Below, piece by piece: positions 5,825 through 63,717 of a DNA stretch of 64,000 nucleotides. The notes below the pieces were generated by a model. That model ran no database searches, had not been told where the DNA came from, and saw only the letters and a list, made by a program, of their open reading frames with translations. The first letter of the stretch is position 1, and each line of letters begins with the position of its first letter. The position numbers and the translations under genes are program-made. Source of the DNA: an uncultured virus (IMG/VR IMGVR_UViG_3300028840_008159) (Duplodnaviria > Heunggongvirae > Uroviricota > Caudoviricetes); IMG/VR virus record IMGVR_UViG_3300028840_008159; one strand, 5' to 3'.

Positions 5825-5859
5825 CGGGCCTTTCTTCCACCGGGTGAAAAGAAGGCCCG
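5825..5859. promoter_or_regulatory. overlapping divergent pair of the repeated element
   Basis: - copy CCCGG-TGGAA-GAAAGGCCCG (5825-5844) and + copy CCGGG-TGAAA-AGAAGGCCCG (5840-5859) at the -/+ gene divergence point. Confidence 0.75.
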
Positions 5860-5916
5860 GCCTGAGGTCTCGAGGAGGCAAGGTCATGCAAGTACTGAAA
5901 TCGGGACTCAGGGAAA

Positions 5917-6129
5917 ATGACGATGAAGAAGCCCATGGACGACGACCCTGTCAAGCTGCTCAAGACGGCCATCGACAGGCAATTCGAGACCTTCTTCGGA
6001 GCCCAGGAGGAGCGGCTCTCCGAGATGACCCTCAAGGAGGCCGTCCAGACCGCCTACCTGATGGGCGTCGTGGTCGGCCTCAAGGACAGCATCAAGTCAA
6101 TCGGGCAAATCTTCGGCGAGAAAGGCTAG
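5917..6129 (+). CDS. hypothetical protein
   Basis: 70 aa ORF with good codon bias. Confidence 0.6.
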   Translation: MTMKKPMDDDPVKLLKTAIDRQFETFFGAQEERLSEMTLKEAVQTAYLMGVVVGLKDSIKSIGQIFGEKG

Positions 6130-6187
6130 TAAAACGAAGGCCCGACGAGCGATAATCAAGGAGAACGACGATTCAAGGAGAACGACG

Positions 6188-6580
6188 ATGGGAAACAGGG
6201 CGGTCATTTGCTTCGACGAGTACAAGCCGGACAACGTCGGGATCTACCTCCACTGGAACGGGGGACGGGACTCCGTCGAGGCGTTCCTGGAGGCGGCCAA
6301 GAGGCTGAAAGTCCCGCTCGGAGACCCGGCCTACGCGCTCGCCAGGCTCGTCCAGGTGATCGGGAACTTTTTCGGCGGTACGACGAGCGTCGGGGTCGAG
6401 ACCCTCGCCAACCTGGACTGCGAAAACGGGGACAACGGCGTGTACGTCGTTGACTCGTCCACGTTCGAGATCAAGGAACGCAAGTTCTTCGACGGCGACG
6501 AGCAGGAGGGCCACGACCTCGACGAGATGGTCGAGAAGGTCGTGGAGGACAACCCCCAGTTCACGAGGGACGAGACATGA
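6188..6580 (+). CDS. hypothetical phage protein (MGNRAVI...GIYLHWNGG type)
   Basis: AAGGAG RBS, repeated element upstream; motif pattern recalled from large-phage hypotheticals, not searched. Confidence 0.8.
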   Translation: MGNRAVICFDEYKPDNVGIYLHWNGGRDSVEAFLEAAKRLKVPLGDPAYALARLVQVIGNFFGGTTSVGVETLANLDCENGDNGVYVVDSSTFEIKERKFFDGDEQEGHDLDEMVEKVVEDNPQFTRDET

Positions 6581-6870
6581 GCAAGCCCAAATGCCCCCAG
6601 TTGATCGAGTGCGGGGACCACAAGATGTCCCCCTTCTGCATCATCTGCGTCCACCTCATCGAAGGTTCCCCCCGTAAGGCTTTCGCGCTGCCCGCCAGCG
6701 AGGCGTCGCCGGAGGTCGATCACGACTGGGTTTGCGAGAAATGCGTCGCTACCATGGGCAAGCGCGGCGCCAAGGCCGTCCTGGACGACCTGCGCCCGGT
6801 CTGCATCCATTGCGCCCGGAAGGTCATCGACAGGCACGAGAAGGACATGAGCGTCATGGAGGAGGACTGA
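6577..6870 (+). CDS. Cys-rich zinc-binding hypothetical protein
   Basis: CGDH, CVH, CEKC, CIHC; ATGA overlap. Confidence 0.7.
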   Translation: MSKPKCPQLIECGDHKMSPFCIICVHLIEGSPRKAFALPASEASPEVDHDWVCEKCVATMGKRGAKAVLDDLRPVCIHCARKVIDRHEKDMSVMEED

Positions 6871-6871
6871 C

Positions 6872-7907: not shown

Positions 7908-8137
7908 TCTATCACCTGAACCCCCAGCGAAAACCGCCGCCATACCCGACCAGGAAGGTCGTCAAGTGGGAGTGGGTCGACGGGTACGGGTGGTGGATGG
8001 AGCTGGAATGCGGTCATCGCGCCGGACGCGCCTGCAACATATTGGTCGCAGACAAAGTACGGCCGACACGTTACCCTTGTACGAGCTGCCCGCGCTCGGG
8101 TGAAACGAAGGGCCGCCCCGCGAGCCGTTGAGAGGAG

Positions 8138-8590
8138 ATGACCATGAGCCGGAAATGGGAAACGAAATGCCATTCGTGTGACAACATGGGGATCGCGGCC
8201 ATCCTGAACACGCCCGGCCCCGGCGGGACCGTCGTTCGCAAGCCCGTCTGCGCCAACTGCTTCGTCATGGCCTCCATCAGGGGGAAGCTCGGCAAGCTCG
8301 TGGCCTCCGAAGGGCCATGCGTCATTTGCAAGGCGTTGGGCGGAAGCATCCCGTCGTTGAAGCATGGGGGCGCCGGGAAGATCGTCGAATACAAGTTCGA
8401 CTTCGCCAGGACCGAGATCGAGTACTCCTGCTGCGTCGAGCACATGAAGGCCATCGCCGACCTGAACCTCAGGCCAAACGAGGTCAAGGCGTTGCAGGGC
8501 TTGTTCGGGGTGACGTTCAACACCCACGACGACTTCTACGACGAGGACGGGAACGCCGTCCAGCCGAGGTCCAAGCGAAAGGGATCGTGA
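8138..8590 (+). CDS. Cys-rich hypothetical protein
   Basis: GAGGAG RBS; CHSC, CANC, CVIC; element at 8096. Confidence 0.75.
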   Translation: MTMSRKWETKCHSCDNMGIAAILNTPGPGGTVVRKPVCANCFVMASIRGKLGKLVASEGPCVICKALGGSIPSLKHGGAGKIVEYKFDFARTEIEYSCCVEHMKAIADLNLRPNEVKALQGLFGVTFNTHDDFYDEDGNAVQPRSKRKGS

Positions 8591-8591
8591 C

Positions 8592-9206
8592 ATGAAGAGG
8601 ACATGCCCCCACTGCAAGCAGATCGTCGAGGTCAGGGATGGCCTCTTCAAGTACCATGACTGGCCCCCGAACTGTCGGTCTTGCTGCCCCATGTCGAAGA
8701 AGCCGCCCAAGGAGACCGAGAGAACCCTCTGGTGCCTGGTCCAGGAGGACCCGGACCCGGATGATCGTGCGGAAGGATCCCTGGTCTTCAGGAACGAGAG
8801 CGGCGCCCGTAACGCCGACGACGTCCCGTGGCAGGTCATCGAGCAGTCCAGGCGGATCGGCGAGCGCAACGGGCTGGAGGTCGTCGACTGGGAGGTTTAC
8901 CAGGACCAGGTCATCGTCTACATGGACGGGCCTTTCGGGGAAATCGACATGACCGAGATCGCCGAAGAAGGACAGGGCCAGCAAAAGGGGGGAAATTCGA
9001 TGCGGATCGAGAAGACCGACAAGCATAGCCGGGTCCTGCTGGTCAAGGACATCCCGACCAAGCATGGCGAGCCTGGCGAGCCGGTGGAACTGGAGATCGT
9101 CATCAACTATACCGAGGACGGGGAAGCCGGGCGCGTTAACAAGGCGGTTTGTCTTGACGGCGTCGTCATCCCGGCAATCATCGAGAGGTTCAACGCCGGG
9201 GAATGA
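8592..9206 (+). CDS. hypothetical protein, possibly two fused genes (second start near 9000)
   Basis: 204 aa ORF with CPHC; internal purine-rich stretch before MRIEK. Confidence 0.6.
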   Translation: MKRTCPHCKQIVEVRDGLFKYHDWPPNCRSCCPMSKKPPKETERTLWCLVQEDPDPDDRAEGSLVFRNESGARNADDVPWQVIEQSRRIGERNGLEVVDWEVYQDQVIVYMDGPFGEIDMTEIAEEGQGQQKGGNSMRIEKTDKHSRVLLVKDIPTKHGEPGEPVELEIVINYTEDGEAGRVNKAVCLDGVVIPAIIERFNAGE

Positions 9207-9229
9207 CCCGTTTTTAACAGGAGGAAGCC

Positions 9230-9466
9230 ATGACGACGCTAGACCGTGACGAGAAGGCCGCCGGGTTCGCCGGGTTCGTCGTCGGGTTGATCCTGGCGGT
9301 CCTCTTTACTTCCTGGTTCTGGTGGATTAGCAATGCCCTCCTAAGTCGAGAGATCAGGGACATGAAGGCCACCGCCGTCGAGTACGGGTACGCCCAATGG
9401 GTCACCGGGAAGTCCAAGGAGCCGGAGTTCAAGTGGGTCGTCCCCCCCGAGGCCCAGGCGGAATGA
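9230..9466 (+). CDS. small single-pass membrane protein
   Basis: AGGAGG RBS; hydrophobic segment GFAGFVVGLILAVLFTSWFWWI. Confidence 0.75.
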   Translation: MTTLDRDEKAAGFAGFVVGLILAVLFTSWFWWISNALLSREIRDMKATAVEYGYAQWVTGKSKEPEFKWVVPPEAQAE

Positions 9467-9561
9467 AAATCCCAGGATCACTCGGCGGCCTGGGGGATCG
9501 AGCGTGGCAGGCCATCGCGTGAAAAGAAGGCCCGCCGTGGGGTTCGTTCGAGAGGAGAAGA

Positions 9562-9786
9562 ATGATGGCCATCCTGAATACCCCCACCAAGAAGGCATTC
9601 CGACGCGCCTCCCCGCAAAAATGGCACCTTCCGGGGACGGAGGGGAACTACGACGGGCTCGTCATGACCGCCTGCGGATTGATCCTGTACGACGGGGAGC
9701 GCGAGGAGATCGAGGTCGAGGCCATCCCGGCTCGGAGCATTTGCCAGAAATGCCTCGGCCCCTTGATCGCCACGGACGAGGAGTGA
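9562..9786 (+). CDS. small Zn-finger-like protein
   Basis: WH...TACG...CQKC; element at 9515, GAGGAG RBS. Confidence 0.7.
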   Translation: MMAILNTPTKKAFRRASPQKWHLPGTEGNYDGLVMTACGLILYDGEREEIEVEAIPARSICQKCLGPLIATDEE

Positions 9787-9790
9787 AACG

Positions 9791-10219
9791 ATGCCAAGCC
9801 TAACGAAAAAGATCCGTAGTATGCTTGGTTTGAAAGGAGCAAGACACATGGATAACTTCGTCGAAGCCATCAATGGCAGTTGGACCACACTCCACCGTCT
9901 TATTGTGGATACTCAAACAACCCCCTGCGGACTTAAATGGCATAAGAAAGGGAACAAAAGAAAAAAGTCAGTCGCCAGAAACGAAGTCTGGATTCCAAAC
10001 GCAGTCTACTTCGATGCCCCTAAGAAATGCAAAATCTGCTTCAAGAAAAAGAAACGGAAAATCCAAAGAAAGATAAAGATCCTCGACTGGGAAACGGACC
10101 GGAAGGGATTGCTACGGGAAAAAGCCGAGATTCTCGAGCCGGAGGTGAACAATGACCGATTACAGCAAGATCGAGGAATACGCTCGTCACGGAGGAGCCT
10201 ACGACAGGGGCGCGGCTGA
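9791..10219 (+). CDS. Lys-rich hypothetical protein, low GC
   Basis: H...TPCG...CKIC, resembling the upstream gene; AT-rich codons. Confidence 0.55.
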   Translation: MPSLTKKIRSMLGLKGARHMDNFVEAINGSWTTLHRLIVDTQTTPCGLKWHKKGNKRKKSVARNEVWIPNAVYFDAPKKCKICFKKKKRKIQRKIKILDWETDRKGLLREKAEILEPEVNNDRLQQDRGIRSSRRSLRQGRG

Positions 10220-10745: not shown

Positions 10746-10773
10746 TTGACAATCCAGCGTCCCAGGGTATCCT
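10746..10773 (+). promoter_or_regulatory. sigma70-type promoter
   Basis: TTGACA-N16-TATCCT, intergenic, 27 nt before ATG 10801. Confidence 0.7.
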
Positions 10774-15379: not shown

Positions 15380-15407
15380 TTGACAACCCCCGGCCGCGTG
15401 GTATCCT
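15380..15407 (+). promoter_or_regulatory. sigma70-type promoter (extended -10)
   Basis: TTGACA-N16-TATCCT with TG upstream of -10; followed by AGGAGG and ATG 15429; same architecture as 10746. Confidence 0.7.
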
Positions 15408-15979: not shown

Positions 15980-16249
15980 ATGACCGACGCCCTCCCCGCG
16001 ATGCGCAAGCGCATGCTCTCCTCGTACCACCGGGTCTCGGTCAAGGCCGGCTTCGTCAGGAACGGGACCGTCCGCAGGATGGGCGCCTGGCAGGACGACT
16101 TCCTGTCCTACGTCCTGGACTACTACAGGCTCCCCTTCACCATCCCGAAGGGACGCGATCTCAAGGACTGGCAGGTCAACATGCTCGTCAGGAACCAGGT
16201 CGCCGCCCAGATGGTCGACGCCAGGGAACGCACGTGGGAGGACCGTTAA
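15980..16249 (+). CDS. hypothetical protein, paralog of 20651-20911
   Basis: shares DALP..R..MLSS...WQ..F...VLD...LP.T.P....L..WQ...QV.AQM with 20651-20911. Confidence 0.7.
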   Translation: MTDALPAMRKRMLSSYHRVSVKAGFVRNGTVRRMGAWQDDFLSYVLDYYRLPFTIPKGRDLKDWQVNMLVRNQVAAQMVDARERTWEDR

Positions 16250-18624: not shown

Positions 18625-18706
18625 AAGGCGTCCTCGCCGCGTCGGCCACGGCCACCCAATGGCGTAAGGCGTCCTCGCCGCGTCGGCCACGGCCACCCAA
18701 TGGCGT
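18625..18706. repeat. perfect 41-bp tandem duplication
   Basis: AAGGCGTCCTCGCCGCGTCGGCCACGGCCACCCAATGGCGT x2. Confidence 0.92.
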
Positions 18707-24239: not shown

Positions 24240-24340
24240 ACGGTCGATTTGCGAGAACGTTAGTTCAGGAGCTTGATTTCATAAATCCTGAAATGTCAAC
24301 GTGTAGGGAGATCGCCAACTAACGATTCCCCGCGAGAACG

Positions 24341-24440
24341 TAAGTTCAGGCACGGTCGAGGAGATCCTGACACGCCCACGAAGAAAGAGACACGGCCAGT
24401 CGAGATCAGGCACGGCGACCGAAAATCAGGCACGTCGGAC
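24341..24440. repeat. five GRCACG boxes at an exact 20-bp period (iteron-like)
   Basis: CACG at 24351, 24371, 24391, 24411, 24431; three units read TCAGGCACG. Confidence 0.85.
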
Positions 24441-24583: not shown

Positions 24584-24602
24584 ATGTCAACCGGGTTGAC
24601 AT
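24584..24602. promoter_or_regulatory. palindromic operator-like site
   Basis: ATGTCAACC-G-GGTTGACAT perfect inverted repeat. Confidence 0.55.
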
Positions 24603-24942
24603 GGTCCGGGTCCTGGGATTGTCAAAATAACCCCTTTGGCCAATTGGATTTACGCGAAGTGAGCGGCTCACTGTGCTAGCCGGCGCGGTTCTGGATCGCT
24701 TCCTTCGCCTTGATCTGGGCTCTCGGATCGAAAAAACCTTTCCTGGAATTTGTCAGATAAAGCCCCTGGGCGCGTACGTACTATGGGGGTCTGTCCCAAA
24801 ATACGCCCATAAACCGCATGTGTCTCCGAAAGGCGACATGATCGTCTCCCGAACGATCGAAAATCCCTTCCTCTTTATTGTCCCGCGAGATTCCGGCCAG
24901 GTGGATCGAAGGCCCGACTAGGGTCGCGCAAGGAGAAAAACG

Positions 24943-25531: not shown

Positions 25532-25608
25532 GGCGAAAGGTGAAACGAAGGCCCGACCCAGGGGCCGTTGAAGGACAGGTTTGAATCGGAGACGGAAACA
25601 AGGAGGAA

Positions 25609-27033: not shown

Positions 27034-27266
27034 GTTGCACAAGATCACCGTCGAGGTGACGATCCTGACGAGACAGGAGCCTGACGACGCCGGGTTCGAC
27101 ATGTTCCATTCCGGGGACGGGGAGGTCGCCAGGATGCGGACCAAGCGGGAGGAGCTGTCGGAGGAGGAGGGGATTCGTCAGGCGATCTCGATGGGGATGG
27201 ACCACAAGAAGCTCCTGCCCAGGTGAACCGAAGGCCCGGCCAAGGGGTCATGAAAGGGGTTTCCAG

Positions 27267-27632: not shown

Positions 27633-27906
27633 ACGACATCCAGGAACTGGCCCAACAGGCGTTCGAGGTCGCAAAACGATCAGTCCGCTTGCTCAAGGAT
27701 GATGTCGATCGGTTCCTCTCGAAACAAATTCCCAAAGGGCCGTACGACAAGGACAACGAGGCGTGGATGGGTTTCCCGTGGTCCTCCGAGGATGGATGGA
27801 ACGTGTTCCGTAGATCCAAACTGACGAGGCTTTTCGGCTGACCAGGTGAGGCGAAGGCCCGGCCTAGGTGTCGGGAGCGAGATGAAGAAGAAGGAGGACT
27901 GAAAAC

Positions 27907-28110: not shown

Positions 28111-28223
28111 GAGCGACGCCATGACGCCTCAAGAAATCTTGCAGGGAGCCTGCGACAAGTCCGGGGGCTAATAGGCCAGGTGAACCGAAGGCCCGACCAA
28201 GGGGGCATGAAAGGGGCGAAGGC

Positions 28224-33237: not shown

Positions 33238-33474
33238 TTCCTCTTGCTTTCCGGGAGCATCGACGCGAAGAGGAGCAACACCTGTTGCTCGTCCGCGATG
33301 ACCTCCTCGTCTTCCCCGTTGGGGCTTTCCTTGATCTTGTCCTCGATGAACTGGACGGCCTTCGGGCCGAATACCTGCGCGATCTTGAGGTACGTCTTCA
33401 GGGTGGAAGGCTCGCCGGTGCTGATCGTTCGCATCCTCGTTCTCCTCGCGTCGTCGGGCGGGCCTTCGGTTCAC

Positions 33475-34257
33475 TCAGATGTGACAATCCACGGCGACGA
33501 CCAGGTCGTCGTCGTCGAAGGACTCGATGATGGCCTTGGCCTGGTCGCCCCAGTCCTCCTTCTCGTCGGCGACCATCGCCCACCAGCCCATCCGGCCCTT
33601 CTCGTTCCACTTCCCGTCCTTGGTCAGGATGGCGAACGGGACCAGGTCGTCCTCGTCCTTCTTGAGCAGTTCCTTGACCTGCTTGCCGCTGGCCCAGTCC
33701 ACGCCGTCGCCGAAGTAGTTGGACCACCTGCCGCCGACCTGCCACCAGTCCCACTTGGAGTCGGGGTTGTAGGTGGTCTTGGCTATGCCCGTCCCCTTGC
33801 ATTCGTCGCAGTCGGCGTCGGGCTTCAGCTTCTTCTCAAGCTGCGGGCGCCGTTTCTTCTCCAGGGCGTCCCGCTCGTCGGCCTTGATGAACTTTTTCCA
33901 GGCGGCGTCCTGCTCCTTCTCAAGGCTCGCGATGTCGTCGCGGAGCCTCTTCCGCGTCTCCTTGTCGTTCGTGGTCTCCATCGCGTTCCAGAGCGCGTTC
34001 TGCTTGTCTTGCAGGTCGCGGGACGCCGGGAGGTCGCGGAACTCGTTGCGCAGGTCGTCGATCTTGCCGAACTTCTTGGCCTGTTCCTCCATGATGGCCA
34101 CGTTGACCTTGTGCCTCTTGCAGTAGCATTCCTTCTCGTACTCAGGGACATCCGTGTTCTCGTCGAACGGCGCGAGCGCGGATTGGAGCCGCTCGTCGTT
34201 CTCGCCCTCGAAATCCTTGAGCTTGCCCAACTGGACCATAACCGAGAAATGCGACAT
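33475..34257 (-). CDS. phage protein (MSHF.V.V...KWDWWQVGGRW...VDCHI type)
   Basis: 260 aa with CDECKGTG; AGGAG RBS. Confidence 0.8.
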   Translation of the reverse strand: MSHFSVMVQLGKLKDFEGENDERLQSALAPFDENTDVPEYEKECYCKRHKVNVAIMEEQAKKFGKIDDLRNEFRDLPASRDLQDKQNALWNAMETTNDKETRKRLRDDIASLEKEQDAAWKKFIKADERDALEKKRRPQLEKKLKPDADCDECKGTGIAKTTYNPDSKWDWWQVGGRWSNYFGDGVDWASGKQVKELLKKDEDDLVPFAILTKDGKWNEKGRMGWWAMVADEKEDWGDQAKAIIESFDDDDLVVAVDCHI

Positions 34258-35029: not shown

Positions 35030-35068
35030 CTCCTCTCCTCCCTTCGAGATACTGGGCGGGCCTTCGAC

Positions 35069-35422
35069 TCACCTGGTCGGGAGCAGTACCTCGTAGGGGG
35101 AACGAGACACGTCCACGCTCCCGTTCATCTCAAGTCCTTCCAGGGATTCGAGTTGGAAGAACGCGACGGTGGGATAACGCTTGACGGCTCGTCCTGCCGC
35201 CAACACGGCGTATTCCTCTTGCTGCTCCCGCGTCGGCGTTATGGAGGGATGTCGGCTGTAAATTCCTCCCTCGTAGTAGACACGATACCCATCGGCGGTT
35301 TTGATGGCGACGGCGATCGAGCCAGCGGCGATCTTCCCGAACAACCCCTTGACGTGTTCGGGGGCGTCGGGCTTGAGCCTCACGATGGGGAGGCGCGTCT
35401 CCAGCAGGGCCGGGAAGTTCAT
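35069..35422 (-). CDS. hypothetical protein
   Basis: ATGA overlaps; the element overlaps its stop codon. Confidence 0.65.
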   Translation of the reverse strand: MNFPALLETRLPIVRLKPDAPEHVKGLFGKIAAGSIAVAIKTADGYRVYYEGGIYSRHPSITPTREQQEEYAVLAAGRAVKRYPTVAFFQLESLEGLEMNGSVDVSRSPYEVLLPTR

Positions 35423-36092: not shown

Positions 36093-36178
36093 CCTACACC
36101 ATCCTTTCTATCCTCCTCGCCTTCTTGGGCGGGCCTTCGCGTCACCTGGTCATGAGACACGCCTGAGGACGCGCTGGC

Positions 36179-36724: not shown

Positions 36725-36761
36725 CGGTTCTTCCTCCTGCCCGTGATGACGGGCCTATGAT

Positions 36762-38573: not shown

Positions 38574-38659
38574 CGGTTTCTCCTTTACGGGGCGGGGGCT
38601 TTCCGGGCCAATGCGGGCTACTCGTTCACCCGCCAAGTTGGACCGCCCCGCCCCTTATC

Positions 38660-39142: not shown

Positions 39143-39189
39143 GGTTTCTTCCTCCTTCGGCGTTTGGGACGGGCCTTCGCGTCACCTGG

Positions 39190-42788: not shown

Positions 42789-42910
42789 TCGTTCCTTGCC
42801 CCTTTCGCCCCCAATGGGCGGGCCTTCGCGTTGCCTGGTCCATGAGGCACGCCGATCTCAAGGCGTCCTAGCGGGCCTTTGTTTCACCTGGAGCGACGAG
42901 GCACGCCCGT

Positions 42911-46638: not shown

Positions 46639-46689
46639 TACGTTCTCCTCGGTCCAGTTGGCGGGCCTTCGTCTCGCCTGGTCATGTTA

Positions 46690-47502: not shown

Positions 47503-47535
47503 CGGCGTTTTCCTTTCGAGTTCCTTGTCGGGCCT

Positions 47536-48018
47536 TCACGCGGCCTGGTCGGTGGCTATGTCGTACACCTCGTACTCGTCCCAACTTACGAACCCTTCCT
47601 CCATCATGCCCTCGCAGACGAGGTGGTTGCCGGACATGTCGAACAGCCCGACGTCCACCGTGTCAGAGTCGTATTCCCTCATCAGGTCTTCCTCGCCCGT
47701 TATGTCGAGCGGCGCGGCGCAGATGACCATCTCCTGCTTGCCGTCCAGGCAGACGACGAACGGCCGGCCCCTGGGCCATTGCTTCGTGACGTCCTCGTAC
47801 TCCACCGGGGTGAACTGGACGTCGGCGGCGACGGCCATCACGTCTTGCTGGTCGAACCGGAACATGGTCCCTCGCTTGAACGTGTAGACCGGGGGGTCGG
47901 AGACGAGCATCGCCATAAGCTCGCCCTTCTTCAAGCCCTTGAGGAGTGATGGCTCGACGACGAGGTACAGGTTGTGCCCGTACTTGGACGTGAATATGTC
48001 GCCAGGCTTGACTTTCAT
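47536..48018 (-). CDS. hypothetical protein
   Basis: 160 aa; N-terminus V.PGDIF resembles 39190-39615. Confidence 0.7.
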   Translation of the reverse strand: MKVKPGDIFTSKYGHNLYLVVEPSLLKGLKKGELMAMLVSDPPVYTFKRGTMFRFDQQDVMAVAADVQFTPVEYEDVTKQWPRGRPFVVCLDGKQEMVICAAPLDITGEEDLMREYDSDTVDVGLFDMSGNHLVCEGMMEEGFVSWDEYEVYDIATDQAA

Positions 48019-49662: not shown

Positions 49663-49727
49663 TATCTCTCCCTCTCTTTCCGTCCCTTGGGACGGGCCTT
49701 CGCGTTTCCTGGTTTGGTTCTACACGC

Positions 49728-50189: not shown

Positions 50190-50447
50190 GATTCGCTCCT
50201 TGCCCCCTTTTGTCAATCTCAACGTCATCAGAGACGGGCCTTCGTTGCACCTGGTCCTCCTGACACGGCGAACTCCTGGTGGCCAGGCACGGCCGGCCTC
50301 CGGGCCTTCGCGTTGCCTGGCCGAAAACCTCCGGGCCTTCGGACGCCCTGGCCGGGGATTTCCTGACACGGTCATATGAAGGATAGCCTGGGAGGGTGGA
50401 CATCAGATGTCCTTGGTTCCCGAAAATTCTTGGATGGTGGACGATGA

Positions 50448-52989: not shown

Positions 52990-53939
52990 TCTCAATCCCC
53001 TTTCGGACCAAGGGGCGGGCCTTCGTTCGCCCTGGCCGTCAGGCACGTCGGCGTTCGGCGTTTGTCGGCGTTTAGTCGCGCTTGATCATCGTCCAGCCTG
53101 ATCGTGGCGGGGGTATCCCGGTAAGCAGCTTGGCCCGGCTCAGGCCGGGGGTCGTCCAGCTATCTTCCCGGCTCATGAACAAGGACACGTTCGTCGGCAT
53201 CTGTTCGTCCACCACGTCCGCCAGGCAAACCCCGTAACTGGGCTTGATGACGTCCAACGCCAGGTCGAGGAAGCCTTCCCTCCAGGCCGCGCAGCGTTCC
53301 GTCCATGCCCTCCACGCGACTTCCTCGGGGATCATGTTGCCTGGCGTCAGGCCGTCCTGGAGGAAGGTCCATTCGTCCAGGCTCTCGAGGTTCCAGGAGA
53401 TATCATCCCAGTCGGGTTTCACGAGTCGTATCGTGGACGGGATCACGCCGAGGCCGTCATGTCTTAGCGGGTCGTTCGCCATCCTGGACAGGAAGTCATG
53501 AGCGTCGAAGCGATGCGACACGGCGCGGAGTTCCAGGAACGGGTCATACGACAGGACGTCCCGCTCCACCTTTGGCGGCAGGCCCCACGTCTCGCCGACG
53601 AAGAGTATCTCGTGCCTCATGCCGCGAACATCTCCGCGAGGCGGTCGACGACCGCCTCCATCTCGTCCCGCTTCACCTTGCGATGCAGCCACAGGACGAT
53701 GGGAATCCCGTGGCCCGTGTCCTTGATCTTGATGGCCCTCGCCGACACCCCGACGACGGGCGGCAGGCGCGTCCCTTCCTGTCCCAAAATCCATGCCGGG
53801 AGGCACTTCTTGGCCTCGCTCATCACGCGGCGATACCGCGCCTTCGAGTCCTCGCCTGGCACGCGGGCGTTCTTGATGTGATAGAAGTCGGACCTCTTCC
53901 CGTACTTCCTCACGATGATGTCCTGGCGAACGCCCTGGC

Positions 53940-54545: not shown

Positions 54546-55014
54546 TCGCCTTTCCCTTTCAGGCGGGACTTGACTCGCTTGTTGAAGGACTTGAGTTGCT
54601 TGCTGAACTTGGCGAACAACTGCATCTTGCAGTTAGGGCATTCGTACAAGTCCACCGGACCCTCGAAATACTCCTCGCCTGTACTATAACACGAGAAAAC
54701 GTCCATCGTCGAGCCGGGATTGGGATTCGGCTTGCGCGTCATCTCCTCTCCGCAGATGGGGCATTTCAGGTTCATCCTGGAAGCCTCCTTTAACATGCCG
54801 GACGGGCCTTCGCGCCGCCTGGGGCTAGTTCTTCTTCTCGGCCAACCAGCCCCAGAACAGCCTAGCCGCGACCAGCATGACGGCCGGGACGGAATACCAG
54901 TACCACGCGGCCTTCAACACCACGAGGGCCACGATGACCAGCAGGGCCAGCAACGGCAGCATCTCCATCAGGAACACGAACGTCATCAAGCCGATCATCC
55001 TTCCTCTCCTTGGA

Positions 55015-55494: not shown

Positions 55495-55946
55495 GGTTGC
55501 TCCTTTCCGCGTCCAGGGCGGTGATCGCCTCGTCGCGTAGTTCGCTGGCTTCCTGGGCGAGTCCGCAAGCCTTCTGGGCGAGTTCTTGCGACGTCTCCGC
55601 CGCTCGCATGGTCTTGGCGAGCAAGACCCTCATCTTGTTCATCCGTCGTTCCTGGGCCGCGATCACGCCGAGGGCGGCGCCCAACAAGACCAGCAAACCA
55701 ATGTTCATCGTCATCTCCTCGTCCGTCTTCCTGGACGGGCCTTCGCCATCCCCCTGGTCGCTTTGCGTTTCTGGTTGACAAGCCTGGTAAGCGTCTCGTT
55801 GATGTTCCCAGCTAACGCCTTGGCGTGGGACTCGCAACGGCATTTGACCATGGGGTCCGCGCCTTGCTGGTCACCGATCCTGACGTACCAGGAATCGACT
55901 CCAGGGCAATAGATGGCCTTGGCCCAGCGAACCCTTCTCGCTGGAA

Positions 55947-56387: not shown

Positions 56388-56896
56388 TCTCGTCCTCCTC
56401 GTCGGCGACCTCTAGGGCGGCAGCGAGACGCTCGTCGAAGTCGAGACCCTTCTCGTCGGCCAGGTGTTTCAGGTCCGTCAGGGCGTCCCTGAAGGCACCC
56501 TCGAAGGTGGTCCCGGCATTCTGCGCGTACTCCTCGACGGCGGCTTCAAGGACCAGCCGCAGCTTGGCGTCGGGGTCCATTCTCTTGCCCATGTCTCTCT
56601 CCTTTCGACCCCAAGGCCGGGCCTTCGGCGACCCTGGTCAGGAGGCACGCTCATGGCGTGAAGTCCTCCAGGTCATCATCCTTCGATGGGTCGTTGTGCG
56701 CGGACATCTTCGCGTGCTGCTCGTCGGAGCACGTTTCCATGACGCCCCCGGTCTTGTGGTCGTAGACCATGTAACCCTTCGGCCTGGGCTTCTGGGGCGT
56801 GCAATCGACGCATGTTTCCACGCCAAGCAGGTCACGCCGCTCGTCGGGCACGTCCTTGCCGCAGCCGGGGCATGGATGGGTCATTTTCTGCCTATC

Positions 56897-57298: not shown

Positions 57299-57355
57299 GT
57301 CAATCTCCTCTGCGCTTGAGGGCGGGCCTTCGGGGTTCCTGGCCTTCAGGCACGG

Positions 57356-58193: not shown

Positions 58194-58503
58194 GGCTATC
58201 CTCCGCCCAAAAGGTCGGGTCTAATGGCCGTCAGGGACATCCGCATTCGAGGTCCTCGTCGTTGTTGTAGGGCTGATTGCATTTCGGGCACTTCACCTTG
58301 GCCTTGAACTTGATGACGTCATCGGCCAGCTCGGCGAGGAGCGCGGGCGCGTCGAGCTGGGGCGCGTCGCATTGACACACGGACTCTCCGCTGAAGGACT
58401 CGTGCTCCACGAAGAACGCGATGACCTTGTCGAAGACGGCCTTGCGCACGTCCGGTCCGTCATCGTACTCGACCACGTAGCTCTCGGTTTCCTTCTTCAT
58501 GGC

Positions 58504-58974
58504 TTACTCCTTGACGGGCCAGACGTAGGGGAGGGTCGGCGGTTCCGACCACCCGAACCTCCCGTACCAGGCCGGGTCCTTGCGCAGCAGGTTGCTCCGG
58601 TGGCTCGCGTGGAAGTCGGCGTTTCCGAGCCACGGCGGCGGTTCCAGGCCGAGGATCGTGATCCGCGCCCATGACGGCGAGAAGACGCTAGGCGCCAGGA
58701 TGACGTGAGCCAGCTCCCCTTCGATGAACACGCGCTGCTTCTCGTTCTTGTAGCCCCTGCCGACCCACTCGTCGATCATGGCCTTCATGTACACGGCCAG
58801 GGCGCCCTCGTGCCCGCGCCACATCCGGGCCGCCGGGTGGTTCGCCCAGCCCTTCCTGATCCCCTTGAGGGCCTCGATGAGCTGCCGCGCCTCGACGCGC
58901 TGCTTGCCCAGACGAAGACGGTCCAGGGCGCGGGCCGACGCGGCGAAGTCAGGGTATGGAAGGAACGTTTGCAA
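58504..58974 (-). CDS. pyrimidine-dimer DNA glycosylase / endonuclease V-like (MSMEG_6728 type)
   Basis: QTFLPYPDF..SA..LD..RLGKQRVEA...HPAARMWRG...HASHRSNLLRKD; TTG start after GGAGG. Confidence 0.85.
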   Translation of the reverse strand: MQTFLPYPDFAASARALDRLRLGKQRVEARQLIEALKGIRKGWANHPAARMWRGHEGALAVYMKAMIDEWVGRGYKNEKQRVFIEGELAHVILAPSVFSPSWARITILGLEPPPWLGNADFHASHRSNLLRKDPAWYGRFGWSEPPTLPYVWPVKE

Positions 58975-59033
58975 TGTCAGCCTCCACGTAAATGTTACCA
59001 CGTGTCTCGTGCCTGTCCAGCCGGGCCTTCGGG

Positions 59034-59741
59034 CTACCTGGCCGTGGCCGGGACCATCTGGTCCAGGCGGACGAAGTCGAAGTCCACGTCCTCGCCATCC
59101 AGGTCGAATTTTTTCATCCAGATGTCGATCATCTTCTCGGTCATCTCAAGCTCGCGGTGGTCGTGACAGCCATCGCACGCGAAAAGGGCGTAATCGTGGG
59201 GCGGACGCGGCGCGTACGGGTTCCCGACCGGGTGATCCTCCGTCCCCAAGAGCAGCGCGTCCATGACGAACCTGTTGTGGTTCGTCTCCTTTGGTTGGGG
59301 CACGCCGCAGACGTCGCATTTCCAGCGGGGGCCGAAGGCGTACTCGTACGTCCTGACGCGGACGACCAACGTCTGGCGTTCCACCGGGACGTAGCCCCGG
59401 AAGAGCCGCACGGCCTCGTCGAAGATGATGTCCGGGGAGTTGAACGTGACCGGGCCGAGCGGCCCTCGGACGAAGCCGCCCGGCCGCGACGACATCTTGT
59501 TGACGTCCTCGTGGATCTCGTAGGTCAGGGAGAACAGGCACGGCTGGATCGGCGACTCCAAGGTCCCGACGGTCATGATCTTGCCCGGACCCAACTTGCG
59601 CAAGCCGCGCATCTCTTCCCTGTGGGACGAGACGTAGCGAGCCGCCACCCCACGCTCCAGTAGTTGCTTGAGCATGTAGCGGAGGTAGTCCTCGGACTCG
59701 TTCGCGAGCTTTCCGATGATGTATGACTTGGATTCGCTCAT
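59034..59741 (-). CDS. hypothetical protein with CxxC pairs
   Basis: start MSESK by TGATG overlap. Confidence 0.65.
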   Translation of the reverse strand: MSESKSYIIGKLANESEDYLRYMLKQLLERGVAARYVSSHREEMRGLRKLGPGKIMTVGTLESPIQPCLFSLTYEIHEDVNKMSSRPGGFVRGPLGPVTFNSPDIIFDEAVRLFRGYVPVERQTLVVRVRTYEYAFGPRWKCDVCGVPQPKETNHNRFVMDALLLGTEDHPVGNPYAPRPPHDYALFACDGCHDHRELEMTEKMIDIWMKKFDLDGEDVDFDFVRLDQMVPATAR

Positions 59742-60112: not shown

Positions 60113-60939
60113 GTCATGCTCCCTTCGGCGTTTCTGGCGGGCCTTCGGATCGCCTGGTGAATATGACGCAGACTCGCCTACTCTGGGTTTTCCTAGGACC
60201 CCGGTTTCGGCTGGGCTGGACCTCTCGGTCGGCCCTTCTCACCGCCCCGCCTGCTAGAAGGCAGATTGATGGTCAGCTCGCCTCGTCGATCTGCCTTTGC
60301 AGGTCAAGCGCGAACCGCTTGATGACCTCGGCCTTGGAATCGACGCCCCTGCCCGGGGGCCGCAGCATCTCGACGCAGGTCCCCTTTCCCTTGGCGGTCA
60401 GGACGACGAACGTCTCGCCCTCGAACTCCCGAACCCAGCAGTGGAAGTAGAACTCGCCCTTGAAGCTGAAGTCCATCTTGCCCCACAGCTTCTTGAACGA
60501 CTCGCGGTTGTCTCCCAGAATGCCGGGATCGCGCCAGCCCAAGTTCGTGGTCGAGAACCACCGGAAGAACTCCTGGCAGTTCAAGACGGGCACCGTGTTA
60601 AGCTCGCCCTTCCTGTACTTGACGCCCAATGGATGACTCATCAGTTGCTCCACAATCCGGGCTTGCGGACGGGCTGCTCTCGCTCGATGGCCGCGCCGTC
60701 CTTGACCTCGACGAAGTGACTCTTGACGTACTTCTCCTCGTCCTCGTCGTAGAAGTTCACGCGGAAGAACTGGCTCTTGCCGTTCTTGAACAGGTGGGCG
60801 ATGCTCCGGTCCATCCCGCGCCCTCGCGGGAACGCCTTGGCGACGACCTGACGCGCCTCCTCGACGCCCAAGTCCTTCACCTCGTCGGGCTTGACCTCGA
60901 CGCAATCGCATTCGGGTTTCGGGCAATCAACGCAGTTGC

Positions 60940-61326
60940 TCATCTCGCGCTCTCCTTGTTTGACAGTCCCTCGGCCTTGCCGAAAGCCCAGATCATCTGT
61001 TCCAGCACGGAAAACACCACTTGCGGCGGCATCCGGTTGTCCTTGGCCGCCACGAGGAAGGCGAGGACGATGGAGGCGATGCAGTCGCCCCCGAAGCTGA
61101 TGCCAGCTTGTCCGGGGACCAACGGCTGAAGCCCCGCGAAGCCGCAAGGACGCTTCGCTCCGGTCTCGAAGACGATCCACTCGTTCTCCCGACGCAGGAC
61201 CGTGAGCCCCTCCAACCGCTCCTCGTTGCATACCGAGTCGATGATCCCGCTGATGAACGTCTTCACGTCCTTCGACGAGAACGACTGCTTCATCAAGTCA
61301 TTCGTCTTTTCGAGTACGGAGTTCAT
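60940..61326 (-). CDS. hypothetical protein
   Basis: start MNSVLE 24 nt after element 61351. Confidence 0.7.
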   Translation of the reverse strand: MNSVLEKTNDLMKQSFSSKDVKTFISGIIDSVCNEERLEGLTVLRRENEWIVFETGAKRPCGFAGLQPLVPGQAGISFGGDCIASIVLAFLVAAKDNRMPPQVVFSVLEQMIWAFGKAEGLSNKESAR

Positions 61327-62099
61327 GCCTTCCCCTTTCGATCCAAGGGACGGGCCTTCGCCTCCCCTGGCCGATGGATCATCACGGAAGCCGCGATGCC
61401 TACAAGTATCCAGGTAGCGAATCCGGTGCAAGCCAGAAACTCGACGATGATGTGCCAGATCGTTTCCATGACCGATGGGACGGGCCTACGACGCGCCTGG
61501 CGCGCCAGGCACGCTCATTCGACCTCGATCAGCCAGAAGACGCCGGGGCGAAGAGGGTGTTGCTTGAACCAGAGGTTCTCCGCGGCCTCGTTCCCGTTGA
61601 TCACGTCCTTGGTGAGTTCATGGGCGGAAATGGGCTTGACGCGAAGGATCTTGCGCTTCTCGACGACGTGATCCTCGTCGGACTCCAGGTCGTGACGCTC
61701 GGCCATCTCGCCGATCTTGGCGACCTCGGCCTTCGCGTCCTCCGGCAGGTCGAGCCCCTCGTAGTCGTCGAAGCTCTTCATCCCAACAGCCTCCTTAACC
61801 AACCCCTAATCCTGAGCGTCAGGGGCGCGTGCTTCCGATGCTGCTCCTCGATCCAAAGCTCCTCCTCCTCCCGCTCCTTCGGCGTCGGTTCGGGCGGTTG
61901 GGGGCGCGTCCTCTTGTATGGGGCGTCTCGTCTGATCAGGCTCAAAACAGGAACCTCCGGCAAGCCCTCGCCACCCTCATGGTCGTTGACCAGACGAGCC
62001 ACGCGGCTCTGCCAACCCATACGGATAGAGCGAGATAGAGCAACAGAGTCAACAACATCGGATTGTCCCTCCAGACGCGAGCCTGGACGGGCCTTACGT

Positions 62100-62495
62100 T
62101 CACCTGGCCTCGCATATCTTGACGACCTCGATCCATTCGTCGTCGCTGACGATGACGCGTCTGGAACCGCTGCACATCTCCAATATGCCAGCGGCGTTAC
62201 GATGCTCACGATGACAAACCAGAACGGCGTCTTCCAGCCCCCGCCACGCCCCGTCAGGGGACTTGGCGACGTCGCCCTTGGCGAGGGCGTCACGCGCCTC
62301 CTGCATGGTAGGTCGGCGTATCGTAAGGAACGGGAAGGACTTGGACACCTCGACCCGCATGTGGAACAGGCTGTCGGCGTATGACCTGGCGAGCCGCTCC
62401 TTCCAGTCCTCGCGCCTTTTCTCGATGACGGCCAAGGCGGTCTGGCACGTCTCGCGCGCCCTGGCCACGGGTATGCAGGCGTATGAGGGCATCAT
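62100..62495 (-). CDS. hypothetical protein
   Basis: GGAGG RBS, ATGA overlap. Confidence 0.7.
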   Translation of the reverse strand: MMPSYACIPVARARETCQTALAVIEKRREDWKERLARSYADSLFHMRVEVSKSFPFLTIRRPTMQEARDALAKGDVAKSPDGAWRGLEDAVLVCHREHRNAAGILEMCSGSRRVIVSDDEWIEVVKICEAR

Positions 62496-62742
62496 TCCTC
62501 CTTTTTAGGAAGGCAGGCCATCCCGATGGCCCATGTCAGAAGTCCCAAGGAGACGATGATCATCGCTATCCCGTCGCAGATGGCCTCCTCCGCGCAGGAG
62601 GGGAGCCAGCCTTCGCCGCCGAAGAACTTGGTCTGTACGCCCGCGTAGGCGAAGCCGATGACGAGGATCAAGATCCCGTACCGTACCAAGTAACCTGGCC
62701 GTTGCATGTGTCCCTCCTCGCCCTCCTCGTCGGGCCTTGCGA

Positions 62743-63672
62743 TTACCTGGTCTTCTTGAGCTTCTGGACGAGCTTGCCGAGGTCCTTCAGCTTCTCGTCC
62801 TTGTCCTTCAGGAGGGACTCGTGGGGTAGTTTTTTCAGCGCGACGATGATCGTCTTCACGTCGCATCCAAGCACCTTGGCGAGCTTCATCCCAGTCACGA
62901 TGAACTCCGCGTACTCGCTCTTCTTGGGGCGCCTCCAGTAATGTTCGCAACTCTTGTCGGCGACGAGTCCTTTCCCGAAGAAGTTGATGAACTTGCCGAT
63001 GTCGCCGAACGCCTTCCTCAGTTCCACGGCCAGCTTCTCCGCCACGACCGTCACCTCGTTCAGCTTGACGGGCTTCTTGTACTTCTTGTTCGTCTTGTAG
63101 ACGGGCGTTGCGAAATGCCAGTAGAACTCCCCGACGCGGACGCCCTCCACGTCCTTGAACGACCTCGCCAGCGAGCGGTTGATCAGGAGCCGCTTGTGCC
63201 GCTTGACCTCCTCCATGACACGCCGCTTGCGCGACGCGGTGAGCCTGGCGTCCTCCTTGTCCTCGCCGAGGAGCAGGAACGGGGAGTTCAGCACGTAGGC
63301 CGACCCGTTGTAAAAGACGTGATGATAGAGGTCCGGCGCGGGTTGCGCCTTCGGGAACTTGCCCGCGATGTATTCGAGAACCTCGTCCAGGCTGTCCCCG
63401 GTGAACTCGACGTTCTTGGCCAGCGGCTCGTCGATGGGTCGCAGGTACACGTTGAAACGGGCCTTGATGATCGCGTTGCCGCTTCTGCGCTCGTCCTCGG
63501 AGTACGCCACCCACCGGGCGGGCTTCATGATGTCCAACCCGCACCTGCTCTCGTGCGGCTTCCCGACGACGTGCCATCCTGGGGCGGTGGCCTTGTCGCC
63601 AAGCTCCCTGTCCACGTCGGCGGCGTCGATCCCGATCCTTGCGCAGAAGTCCGCGATGCTCGTTCTTTCCAT
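62743..63672 (-). CDS. hypothetical protein
   Basis: 309 aa, GGAGG RBS, element at 63697. Confidence 0.8.
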   Translation of the reverse strand: MERTSIADFCARIGIDAADVDRELGDKATAPGWHVVGKPHESRCGLDIMKPARWVAYSEDERRSGNAIIKARFNVYLRPIDEPLAKNVEFTGDSLDEVLEYIAGKFPKAQPAPDLYHHVFYNGSAYVLNSPFLLLGEDKEDARLTASRKRRVMEEVKRHKRLLINRSLARSFKDVEGVRVGEFYWHFATPVYKTNKKYKKPVKLNEVTVVAEKLAVELRKAFGDIGKFINFFGKGLVADKSCEHYWRRPKKSEYAEFIVTGMKLAKVLGCDVKTIIVALKKLPHESLLKDKDEKLKDLGKLVQKLKKTR

Positions 63673-63717
63673 GTCAAGGTCCTCCCACCCATGGGGCGGG
63701 CCTCCGGTCTACCTGGC

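Follow-up and report, generated by a model that had tools for sequence, protein, structure and literature searches.

T4-type phages carry promoter-early stem-loop (PeSL) cassettes, described as a strong sigma-70-like -35/-10 promoter that is AT-rich in its upstream part, together with a proven terminator stem-loop (PMC2839356, PMC4122927). Stoperators, known from temperate phages, are described as sites of 13 to 14 bp that serve the immunity repressor and keep no fixed distance from a start codon (PMC3203893, PMC9283540, PMC6550527). The intergenic repeats of halovirus HF2 were, according to the account cited, tested as promoters via reporter fusion (PMC8707807).

The stretch of DNA analyzed here (the window, 64 kb) is from an uncultured huge phage, and an AAA+ protein of the window is found on a contig of up to 546,851 bp. 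It carries many copies of a box that we read, with a probability of about 0.5, as a phage-specific promoter-plus-leader cassette, functionally like the T4 PeSLs and outside that family.

Copies of the box in the window

The box is a 20-base oriented element with two half-sites, which in the window are CCAGGTGA and GAAGGCCCG. With up to two mismatches allowed, CCAGGNNNNNCGAAGGCCCG (CCAGG-N5-CGAAGGCCCG) has 29 matches in the 64-kb window versus 0.62 expected (mean of 100 dinucleotide-preserving shuffles; maximum, 3), which confirms the recurrent, oriented, start-associated element of the original prediction. There are 30 exact matches to the 3' half, GAAGGCCCG (10 on +, 20 on -); 28 of these occurrences are motif copies, intergenic and on the coding strand, and the other two are lone intragenic half-sites at 25974 (sense) and 57401 (antisense). 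Gene calls are our own crude calls plus two genes added by hand.

The curated set holds 35 copies, 9 on + and 26 on -, and all 35 lie on the coding strand of the downstream gene, as had been claimed. The earlier count of about 36 (9 on +, 27 on -) thus stands for the plus strand and is reduced by one on the minus strand. Antisense or mid-gene copies had been named as the counterevidence to look for; the window contains no full copy antisense to a called gene, and the two lone half-sites are the only intragenic occurrences of the exact 3' half. A site at 15671 (-), probably the 27th minus-strand copy of that count, was left out; it has three mismatches and lies in poorly coding DNA with no nearby start. 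The curated copies are as follows.

Plus strand
5840..5859, +: motif copy CCGGGTGAAAAGAAGGCCCG, right half of divergent pair; 5-nt overlap with minus copy
6125..6144, +: variant copy GCTAGTAAAACGAAGGCCCG; start 43 nt away, 17-bp tandem duplication
8096..8115, +: variant copy TCGGGTGAAACGAAGGGCCG; start at 8144, 28 nt
9515..9534, +: variant copy TCGCGTGAAAAGAAGGCCCG; start at 9562, 27 nt
24897..24916, +: motif copy; ATG at 24943, 26 nt
25536..25555, +: motif copy, 2 mismatches; start at 25615, 59 nt
27219..27238, +: motif copy; in-box TGA is the stop of the upstream gene; 41-nt cassette shared with 28176
27842..27861, +: motif copy; stop of upstream gene immediately 5' of box
28176..28195, +: motif copy; start at 28224, 28 nt

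Minus strand
5825..5844, -: motif copy CCCGGTGGAAGAAAGGCCCG, left half of back-to-back divergent pair; start at 5793, 31 nt
33459..33478, -: variant copy CTGAGTGAACCGAAGGCCCG; start 24 nt away
35057..35076, -: motif copy; start 27 nt away; in-box TGA used by upstream gene
36130..36149, -: motif copy; CGTGTC box upstream (36156-36161); start 37 nt away
39170..39189, -: motif copy; start 27 nt away
42819..42838, -: motif copy; CGTGCCT box 42845-42851; 1057-aa CobT/VWA-like gene 30 nt on
42872..42891, -: tandem upstream copy; CGTGCCT box 42899-42905; start 83 nt away
46662..46681, -: motif copy; 410-aa AAA+ gene 23 nt on
47529..47548, -: motif copy with CGA changed to TGA, the stop codon of the upstream gene
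49693..49712, -: motif copy; 465-aa AAA+ gene 30 nt on; orthologous copies in relatives L051, L053, L054, and L056
50235..50254, -: motif copy, third of tandem triple; CGTGTC box 50262-50267; start 45 nt away
50301..50320, -: motif copy, second of tandem triple; without own gene
50332..50351, -: motif copy, first of tandem triple; edge of 4-ORFan block missing from L051
51839..51858, -: motif copy; start 24 nt away
53016..53035, -: motif copy; CGTGCCT box 53041-53047; start 26 nt away
54803..54822, -: motif copy; start 27 nt away
55736..55757, -: long-spacer copy (6-7 nt); start 27 nt away
56618..56637, -: motif copy; CGTGCCT box 56643-56649; start 25 nt away
57323..57342, -: motif copy; CGTGCCT box 57348-57354; start 24 nt away
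59022..59041, -: motif copy; TTG start of pyrimidine-dimer glycosylase gene 47 nt on, sigma-70-like site between
60138..60157, -: motif copy; start 25 nt away
61351..61370, -: motif copy; start 24 nt away
61481..61500, -: copy CGTAGGCCCG; CGTGCCT box 61507-61513; no called gene immediately downstream
62088..62107, -: copy, 2 mismatches; small hydrophobic ORF (hand-added) 29 nt on
62731..62750, -: copy, 2 mismatches; start 23 nt away; in-box TAA used by upstream gene
63697..63716, -: copy CGGAGGCCCG; 309-aa gene 24 nt on

Anatomy of the box and its leader

The half-sites are conserved, as predicted, but the 5-nt spacer does not vary freely, since its first three positions are mostly T, G, and A (21, 21, and 22 of 35 copies, respectively). 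The copy at 55736, described earlier as having a 6-nt spacer, does have a longer one, of 6 or 7 nt depending on the register. Conserved positions continue 3' of the box (C at +2 in 32/35 copies, C at +11 in 27/35) and are followed by a purine-rich ribosome-binding site (block at +14 to +19). In 24 of the 35 copies, 23 to 31 nt separate the last G from the start codon, in agreement with the 21 to 31 nt reported for the final GGCCCG in most copies; the remaining 11, mostly upstream members of tandem sets, lie 37 to 154 nt away. The 43 nt at 6125 are due to the 17-bp duplication, which is present in the sequence and without which the distance would be 26 nt, just as had been proposed. Overlap with the upstream stop codon is indeed frequent: 12 of the 35 copies contain or adjoin it. 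Leaders also form sub-families beyond column conservation: in 23 pairs, at least 14 of 22 positions agree, versus a mean of 5.4 in column shuffles, and one 41-nt cassette (the 27219 and 28176 copies) is 95% identical before two unrelated genes.

The coupling to the ribosome-binding site and the overlap with upstream stops fit an RNA-level intercistronic signal equally well. Such a signal in the 5' untranslated region or intercistronic RNA, which we regard as a possible but rather doubtful alternative, would be read by a phage-encoded or phage-modified factor (candidates are an RNA-binding protein, a nuclease, or the ribosome) and would act on translation of the following gene, by boosting, repressing, or coupling it, or would flag a site of processing; T4 RegA and RegB work in this way on numerous early mRNAs. 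Consistent with a role of this kind are the fixed distance to the start and the ribosome-binding site, seen also in the metagenomic relative L065 (16/16 copies at 20 to 29 nt), and the AGG in both half-sites, a purine-rich word resembling the ribosome-binding sites before starts. At the 46662 copy, a sigma-70-like site is positioned so that the transcript would start at the box, and the orthologous leaders that precede the 465-aa AAA+ gene retain, as judged by eye, a stem through differing sequences. Hairpins using the box CCCG are in weak excess when the fold is constrained (-5.23 versus -4.49 ± 0.36; 7/300 shuffles as low). However, the signal is weak in the unconstrained fold (-7.68 versus -7.02 ± 0.44) and does not replicate in the relatives (z of +0.4 in L065 and +1.4 in L067), and there is no matching Rfam family. 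Moreover, the tandem copies without a gene behind them (50301, 50332, and 42872) have no translational role.

An RNA-level reading also has difficulty with a CGTGYC box found about 6 to 8 nt upstream of the core with 9 of the 35 copies, which, with its variable spacing and a free cluster, looks like a DNA site. It lies 12 to 14 nt before CCAGG in 8/35 copies and 19 nt before it in the ninth (0.55 expected), and it recurs in L051, L053, L054, L056, and L067, although the L067 core differs. A separable box of this kind is what one typically sees where a protein binds DNA. The free cluster lies (at 24.35 to 24.44 kb) within a noncoding region of roughly 650 nt.

24340..24440, -: CGTG(C/T)C(T) cluster without core motif; CGTGCCT at 24434, 24414, and 24354

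A CGTGTCT is visible right after the 24414 CGTGCCT copy.

Placement among genes and in metagenomic relatives

Among same-strand junctions of the minus arm, the box is carried by 18 of the 21 that measure at least 40 nt, by 3 of the 5 that measure 20 to 39 nt, and by none of the 33 shorter than 20 nt. Two boxless gaps of at least 40 nt hold degenerate forms. Short and degenerate forms are as follows.

36750..36756, -: short form, AGGCCCG alone; ATG at 36724, 25 nt
38614..38633, -: degenerate 20-mer GCGGGTGAACGAGTAGCCCG, in 86-nt gap before gene 38019-38573
58216..58222, -: degenerate short form AGACCCG; ATG at 58193, 22 nt

With 26 copies per about 60 called genes in this arm and 33 tight junctions without any, the box heads blocks of genes, contrary to the gene-by-gene control that had been envisaged. 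The only divergent junction in the window has two back-to-back copies overlapping by 5 nt inside a 92-nt interval. As RNA elements, these would require overlapping antisense transcripts, with each promoter inside the leader of the other gene. Between transcription and translation, the DNA-level reading is favored.

The analysis supports the earlier view that the box is no sigma-70 -35/-10 pair. Canonical promoter and terminator signals show no enrichment in the motif-rich arm (4 sigma-70-like sites versus 3.2 ± 2.3 expected; 16 terminator-like sites versus 17.0 expected). Good TTGACA-type sites are present where the motif is missing (10746, 15380, and 29858), which suggests two promoter classes.

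The metagenomic relatives carry different versions of the box at the same place: CCAGGTGA-N5-AGGCCCG in relatives with 76 to 78% amino acid identity, TTAGGTGCAAGTTAGGTCAG in one with 58% identity, and AGGCCCCCGC, which is the L065 version, in one with 52% identity; the L067 half-sites are TTAGGTG and TTAGGTC. All 20 copies in L051 to L056 are on the gene strand, with the start 21 to 44 nt away, and 10 of the 11 copies in L067 lie 22 to 28 nt from the start. In L065, 11 of the 16 copies open with a stop codon, and the copy at position 3476 directly follows a hairpin plus T-run, an arrangement into which no other promoter would fit. In L068, two copies stand back to back, 38 nt apart. Different versions at one position are what one would expect if a phage-encoded or phage-redirected factor binds there. 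The original prediction of a site for a phage-encoded factor is thus borne out as to lineage specificity but not as to the factor itself, as the 117 called window proteins (Pfam; PHROGs on 79) yielded neither a sigma factor nor an RNA polymerase or obvious activator.

Variation of the consensus between related lineages is also a property of stoperators, as are dozens of asymmetric sites in one orientation relative to transcription, here in short intergenic intervals of both arms and with half-sites one helical turn apart. It is nevertheless unlikely that the box is such an operator, bound by a phage regulator that, like the repressor of cluster A mycobacteriophages, would gate or block transcription at many intergenic points, without the box being a promoter. 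The tight start-codon distance is not a stoperator property; unlike in stoperator phages, there is no repressor, integrase, or other sign of lysogeny among the called window proteins; and an operator-only box would leave roughly 26 minus-arm gene blocks without a recognizable promoter.

Within a 9-kb syntenic block, every difference in gene content between relatives adjoins copies of the box, and tandem and partial copies mark the edge of an indel at 50235-50351. Together with the leader sub-families, this fits the suggestion that the element provides homology for cassette shuffling. The same observations and the 95% identical cassette before unrelated genes would be compatible with a recombination hotspot or small mobile, selfish repeat of little regulatory role, which we consider very improbable. 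Gene orientation is strict and the start distance is fixed in every lineage, and position is kept while sequence changes, which argues for selection on function and not on homology alone. Indels beside the box are in any case expected because nearly all intergenic gaps carry it.

A putative cassette and its relation to known systems

As a promoter-plus-leader cassette, the element would head each small transcription unit in the accessory, ORFan-rich arms of this huge phage. Its reader would be a DNA-binding factor other than the unaided host sigma-70 holoenzyme; candidates are a phage sigma factor, an activator, and a phage RNA polymerase. Promoter activity, the position of the transcript start, and what the factor is are all inferred. 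The factor would recognize the two AGG-containing half-sites, 11 nt or one helical turn apart, and the transcript would start within about 10 nt 3' of GGCCCG, with a short leader of about 15 to 25 nt bearing the ribosome-binding site. The optional CGTGYC box 6 to 8 nt upstream may be the site of a separate regulator. Because the whole unit of about 45 nt is repeated, it could also serve as homology where ORFan genes are gained, lost, or swapped. The region to be melted (GAAGGCCCGnCC; AGGCCCCCGC in L065) has a very high GC content and lacks any AT-rich stretch resembling a -10 element, which is unfavorable for sigma-70-family and T7-like polymerases.

Sigma-54 (-24/-12) promoters have GG and GC elements spaced 10 nt apart, and the window lineage has the same spacing, exactly 10 nt, between the GG of CCAGG and the GC of AGGCCCG. 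However, the flanking consensus appears unmatched; L067 lacks GC at the second site and L065 lacks the first site; and the window's AAA+ proteins are of the MoxR/CobS-like kind and not enhancer-binding proteins. Like SAS, the box is an asymmetric, one-orientation repeat of non-structural arms only, tied to start codons, with the upstream stop sometimes inside the repeat and a consensus that differs between sub-lineages. SAS, however, is a 13-bp word containing the Shine-Dalgarno core 3 to 7 bp from the start, whereas the box lies 23 to 31 nt upstream and apart from the ribosome-binding site. In ESAS, two paired 17-bp repeats are inverted, whereas the half-sites of the box are direct.

The box shares with cluster A mycobacteriophage stoperators, as these are described, a number of roughly 30 asymmetric sites per genome (PMC3203893, PMC9283540, PMC6550527) and a transcription-oriented placement in short intergenic intervals, and in both the sites differ between related phages (PMC3203893). 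The repeats of HF2 are reported as conserved intergenic classes that, like the box, were first noticed in sequence, but they are 29 and 58 bp long with AT-rich motifs and belong to a halovirus (PMC8707807). Unlike the PeSL, the box is GC-rich, with no -35/-10 match and no reproducible stem-loop or T-run. Both are, from the published descriptions of PeSLs, concentrated in ORFan-rich variable regions, and both mark places where close relatives differ by indels and replacements (PMC2839356, PMC4122927), so that the cassette supplies expression signals to whichever gene comes next.

A start-associated box and its place among gene junctions

The box, an oriented 20-nt element of the form CCAGG-N5-CGAAGGCCCG that precedes gene starts, is a real, well-delimited cis-signal. 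It has 29 matches in the window at no more than two mismatches, compared with 0.62 expected, and among the 30 exact GAAGGCCCG words, 28 belong to motif copies and 2 are lone half-sites within genes. Curation yielded 35 copies (9 on the plus strand and 26 on the minus strand), besides which there are three further forms that are short or degenerate. The original observation that copies follow the direction of the downstream gene holds for 35/35 curated copies. The 17-bp duplication noted at the copy at 6125 and the longer spacer at 55736 are both present, as are the overlaps with upstream stop codons. On our own rough gene calls, to which two were added by hand, the box ends 23 to 31 nt before the start codon in 24/35 copies; most of those outside this range stand upstream of another copy in a tandem set (50332/50301/50235 and 42872/42819).

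In the information profile of the 35 copies, the G at position 5 and the AAGG and CCCG words are invariant, and the “spacer” is itself partly conserved (T, G, A). Beyond the box there is a C at +2 in 32/35 copies and at +11 in 27/35, followed by a purine-rich ribosome-binding block at +14 to +19. Because conservation runs past the box to this block, the unit is about 45 nt long, not 20 nt; the stretch from box to start codon is referred to here as the leader, and box plus leader as the cassette. The two half-sites are direct repeats with an 11-nt period, and the box contains no -35/-10 match.

The same gene calls give the minus arm 59 pairs of neighboring genes. The box occurs in 0/33 of their junctions shorter than 20 nt, in 3/5 of those of 20 to 39 nt, and in 18/21 of those of at least 40 nt, two of the remaining long gaps holding degenerate versions. 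This distribution indicates that the box heads gene blocks and not each gene. The predicted gene-by-gene control is thus not borne out: not every gene has a box, and a block headed by it holds a single gene or several that are tightly coupled. The sole divergent junction (5825 to 5859) carries two copies back to back with a 5-nt overlap. At 31443 to 31446, where the plus and minus arms converge, the last two genes overlap by 4 nt, leaving no space for a terminator between them.

A separate word, CGTG(C/T)C, lies 12 to 14 nt before CCAGG in 8/35 window copies, with a ninth having it at 19 nt (0.55 expected), and it also precedes copies in five related metagenome loci (L051, L053, L054, L056, and L067). 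No -35-like element or any conserved column was found upstream of it in 17 aligned cases. The word also forms a free cluster at 24.35 to 24.44 kb, and it behaves like what we predict to be an independent protein-binding site on DNA. This cluster falls inside some 650 nt of non-coding DNA (24240 to 24900) with a lower GC content, just before the first plus-arm copy. Repeats of TCAGGCACG (the CGTGCCTGA box) occur there together with a TATATATA stretch and several TTGACA/TGTCAA words, and the region is a possible origin or control region.

The source phage and lineage-specific versions of the box

The window has a GC content of about 0.62, contains no tRNA genes, and is tightly packed with small genes. 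A minority of the called proteins match Pfam or PHROG families, and most are without a match. The recognizable genes are phage-like and include HNH endonucleases and a metallophosphoesterase, along with the three genes listed here.

Recognizable phage-like genes of the window
32191–33231, minus strand: WGR-domain ATP-dependent ligase
56651–56884, minus strand: DksA/TraR-type small zinc-finger protein (weak Pfam match, under the curated cut-off)
58504–58974, minus strand: pyrimidine-dimer DNA glycosylase, TTG start

We take the DksA/TraR family, which the zinc finger matches weakly, to act on RNA polymerase. A cluster on the minus strand (39615 to 49662) encodes two MoxR/CobS-like AAA+ ATPases, of 410 and 465 aa, together with two CobT/VWA-like proteins, of 725 and 1057 aa. 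The 1057-aa protein has a long low-complexity G/Q/E-rich repeat near 41.27 to 41.5 kb that produces false half-site matches. Elsewhere, the 14- to 22-kb region is higher in GC (up to 0.675), with a weak coding signal in our gene calls. There is a 41-nt perfect tandem duplication at 18625 to 18706, and two pairs of segments are paralogous at 71 to 77% nucleotide identity (15980 to 16249 with 20651 to 20911, and 19623 to 19671 with 20917 to 20965).

Because the 465-aa AAA+ protein is recorded on contigs of up to 546,851 bp, the source is taken to be an uncultured huge phage (up to ~547 kb). Megablast of 20 kb of the window against 50,697 phage records gave no match, tblastn with the 410-aa AAA+ protein matched 13 phage records, every one at <60% identity, and a protein search of IMG/VR found no relative. 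The pattern CCAGGN5CGAAGGCCCG occurs at 49 IMG/VR loci with one match per contig, and CCAGGTGAN5AGGCCCG occurs at 63, as single matches except for one contig with two in a duplicated coding stretch; the box word of the related locus L067 has 0 matches. Since these matches are isolated singles and the L067 word is not found, we conclude that the phage and its signal are missing from IMG/VR.

A profile search with the AAA+ protein recovered 80 metagenome loci, of which L050 is the same phage as the window and others carry versions of the box that include CCAGGTGA-N5-AGGCCCG, TTAGGTGCAAGTTAGGTCAG, and AGGCCCCCGC. Six loci (L051 to L056) at 76 to 78% amino acid identity share CCAGGTGA-N5-AGGCCCG, with CCA, GGA, CTA, TGA, or ACA where the window has CGA; four of them (L051, L053, L054, and L056) together contain 20 copies, all on the gene strand and 21 to 44 nt from starts. 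In L067, at 58% identity, the version is TTAGGTGCAAGTTAGGTCAG, in which TTAGGT is clearly repeated in direct orientation every 11 nt; of its 11 copies, 10 lie 22 to 28 nt before a start. The 31.6-kb L067 contig also carries a CRISPR-like array of 22 repeats (GTCTCCTCCCGTACGCGGGAGGAGTGGATTGAAAC) with ~68-nt spacing (8440 to 9920), directly upstream of the AAA+ gene. L065 (52%) has AGGCCCCCG(C) only, in 16 copies within 10.9 kb on a single strand; all 16 lie 20 to 29 nt before a start, an upstream stop codon opens 11 of them, and one directly follows a hairpin and T-run. L062 and L068 (43 to 45%) have GGCCCCCGC and AGGCCCCGG, respectively, and two divergent L068 copies stand back to back, 38 nt apart. 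L069 (4600 to 12300) and L070, which are distant and AT rich (GC 0.435), have the palindromic word TGTGGTACA(W)T (TGTGGTACAWT) 15 to 30 nt before starts; it resembles an extended -10 promoter carrying a dyad like that of an operator, and a promoter scan paired it with a -35-like hexamer in two cases. Across the group, then, position and orientation are conserved, and it is the sequence that is lineage specific.

Reading of the cassette and possible exchange of genes

We put at about one in two the probability that the cassette is a phage-specific promoter plus leader. Several observations favor a signal acting at the level of DNA: the divergent overlapping copy pairs, the separable upstream CGTGYC box, tandem copies that no gene follows, some 26 gene blocks without other promoters, the lineage-specific versions, and the hairpin and T-run that run straight into one L065 copy. 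However, a promoter here would require a GC-rich region to melt, the box is closely tied to the ribosome-binding site and to upstream stop codons, and no reading factor was found among the called window proteins.

That same tie to the ribosome-binding site would fit a signal for translation or processing acting in RNA, a reading that the DNA-level observations make rather unlikely. By eye, many leaders form a small hairpin to which the box contributes its CCCG. Unconstrained folding of the window leaders gave -7.68 versus -7.02 ± 0.44 kcal/mol (z, -1.5), constrained folding gave a z of -2.07 (7/300 shuffles were equally low), and a fixed-register test of the +1/+10 pair found 14/35 standard pairs by our count from the pair table. 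The relatives had no hairpin excess (z, +0.4 in L065 and +1.4 in L067), and Rfam gave 0 matches in the window at gathering thresholds. A conserved RNA hairpin was rejected as a general or defining feature of the box, being weak in the window and absent in L065 and L067.

Between 44 and 64 kb, sigma-70-like sites (4 versus 3.2 ± 2.3 expected) and terminator-like sites (16 versus 17.0 expected) are at chance level. The stretch from 1 to 20 kb has few boxes and a modest excess of sigma-70-like sites (6 versus 2.5 ± 1.5), five of the six being on the plus strand.

Canonical transcription signals in the window
10746–10773: sigma-70-like site, TTGACA-16-TATCCT, in a box-free part
15380–15407: sigma-70-like site, TTGACA-16-TATCCT, in a box-free part
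29858–29886: sigma-70-like site, TTGACA-17-TAGACT, in a box-free part
30307–30330: strong intrinsic terminator

That good sigma-70-like sites fall where the box is absent or rare suggests two putative promoter classes, few of host type and many of private type.

Gene content was compared over a 9-kb block common to the window, L051, L053, L054, and L056, in which backbone genes are kept and ORFans are gained or lost directly upstream of copies. ORFan blocks differ at three junctions, every one of which adjoins a copy: four window-only genes (50448 to 51434) end at the tandem triple, two more (47536 to 48265) end at the copy at 47529, and L051, L054, and L056 have different ORFans at those same junctions. 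Between the 410-aa and 725-aa genes, the relatives have a copy where the window has an ATGA overlap instead. Two unrelated genes are preceded by 41-nt cassettes that are 95% identical, and leaders form subfamilies: 23 pairs share at least 14/22 positions, whereas 500 column shuffles gave a mean of 5.4 such pairs and at most 16. These patterns fit exchange of genes at the level of cassettes, although colocation of indels and boxes is by itself no proof, because the box occupies nearly every gap. That the box is mainly a recombinational repeat is very improbable.

More speculatively, and we hold this to be rather unlikely, this clade of uncultured huge phages may have a private, fast-evolving “start code” whose version is lineage specific and whose position is fixed. 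Such a code would combine a standard leader with a pair of half-sites, each containing AGG and set one helical turn from the other, and in some cases a regulator box. In its boldest form, the code would be read in mRNA by phage-modified ribosomes or a phage initiation factor, so that phage messages would be preferentially translated, and the cassette, through the stop codons built into it, would insulate each gene and allow ORFans to be exchanged.

A limited literature search found no description of how the hundreds of unidentified genes of huge phages are timed or driven. As a clear cis-signal that can be counted, the box marks where transcription units begin; it also offers boundaries where accessory genes are exchanged, and its sister versions in related phages amount to a natural covariation experiment that could make the reading factor findable. 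If it is a promoter, early, middle, and late classes could be annotated in metagenomic huge-phage genomes, and the group would be a source of orthogonal promoter/factor pairs; a box acting in RNA would be a new kind of phage translation control.

Comparison with known systems

In the window lineage only, the CCAGG-N5-CGAAGGC consensus has the GG-N10-GC spacing of a sigma-54 promoter. However, the -24/-12 words do not hold across the family, since the second site of L067 is AGGTC without GC and L065 has no first site. An oriented, conserved word that runs unbroken for about 20 nt just upstream of genes is also reminiscent of promoters for T7-like single-subunit RNA polymerases. Those promoters have an AT-rich melting segment before the start site and go with a cognate polymerase gene, whereas the 3′ half of the box and the bases following it are GC rich, and no RNA polymerase family was found by Pfam among the called window proteins. 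Integron attC-like sites were rejected, as the box is only 20 nt long and lacks the inverted repeats of attC. A full-text search with the 3′ word and “phage” returned unrelated primer matches only, and a general literature search on conserved motifs upstream of huge-phage genes found nothing on this clade.

The stoperators of Cluster A mycobacteriophages, which are bound by the immunity repressor of a temperate phage, resemble the box in copy number and in being asymmetric intergenic sites oriented with transcription. A stoperator-like operator is nonetheless improbable, as the box does not have their free spacing and Pfam and PHROGs identified no repressor or integrase families among the called window proteins.

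Like the SAS/ESAS of Cluster K mycobacteriophages (PMC3203893), the box is single-oriented, restricted to nonstructural arms, and start associated. The SAS is a 13-bp word with a Shine-Dalgarno (SD) core 3 to 7 bp from the start, and the ESAS consists of paired 17-bp inverted repeats upstream. The box, in contrast, lies apart from the SD and ends 23 to 31 nt ahead of the start, its half-sites are direct repeats with an 11-nt period, and nothing is conserved upstream of the CGTGYC box.

The functionally nearest system is the PeSL of T4-type phages (PMC2839356 and PMC4122927), whose cassettes also form mini-circles by recombining with one another. Membership was rejected, because the box cassette lacks the strong, defining sigma-70-like -35/-10 promoter and seems to have no reproducible stem-loop, which in the PeSL is stable and acts as a terminator or attenuator. 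Nevertheless, as with the PeSL, the cassette is intergenic, reaching from the upstream stop to the downstream SD and ATG in plastic, ORFan-rich regions, and indels and replacements between close relatives fall at its copies.
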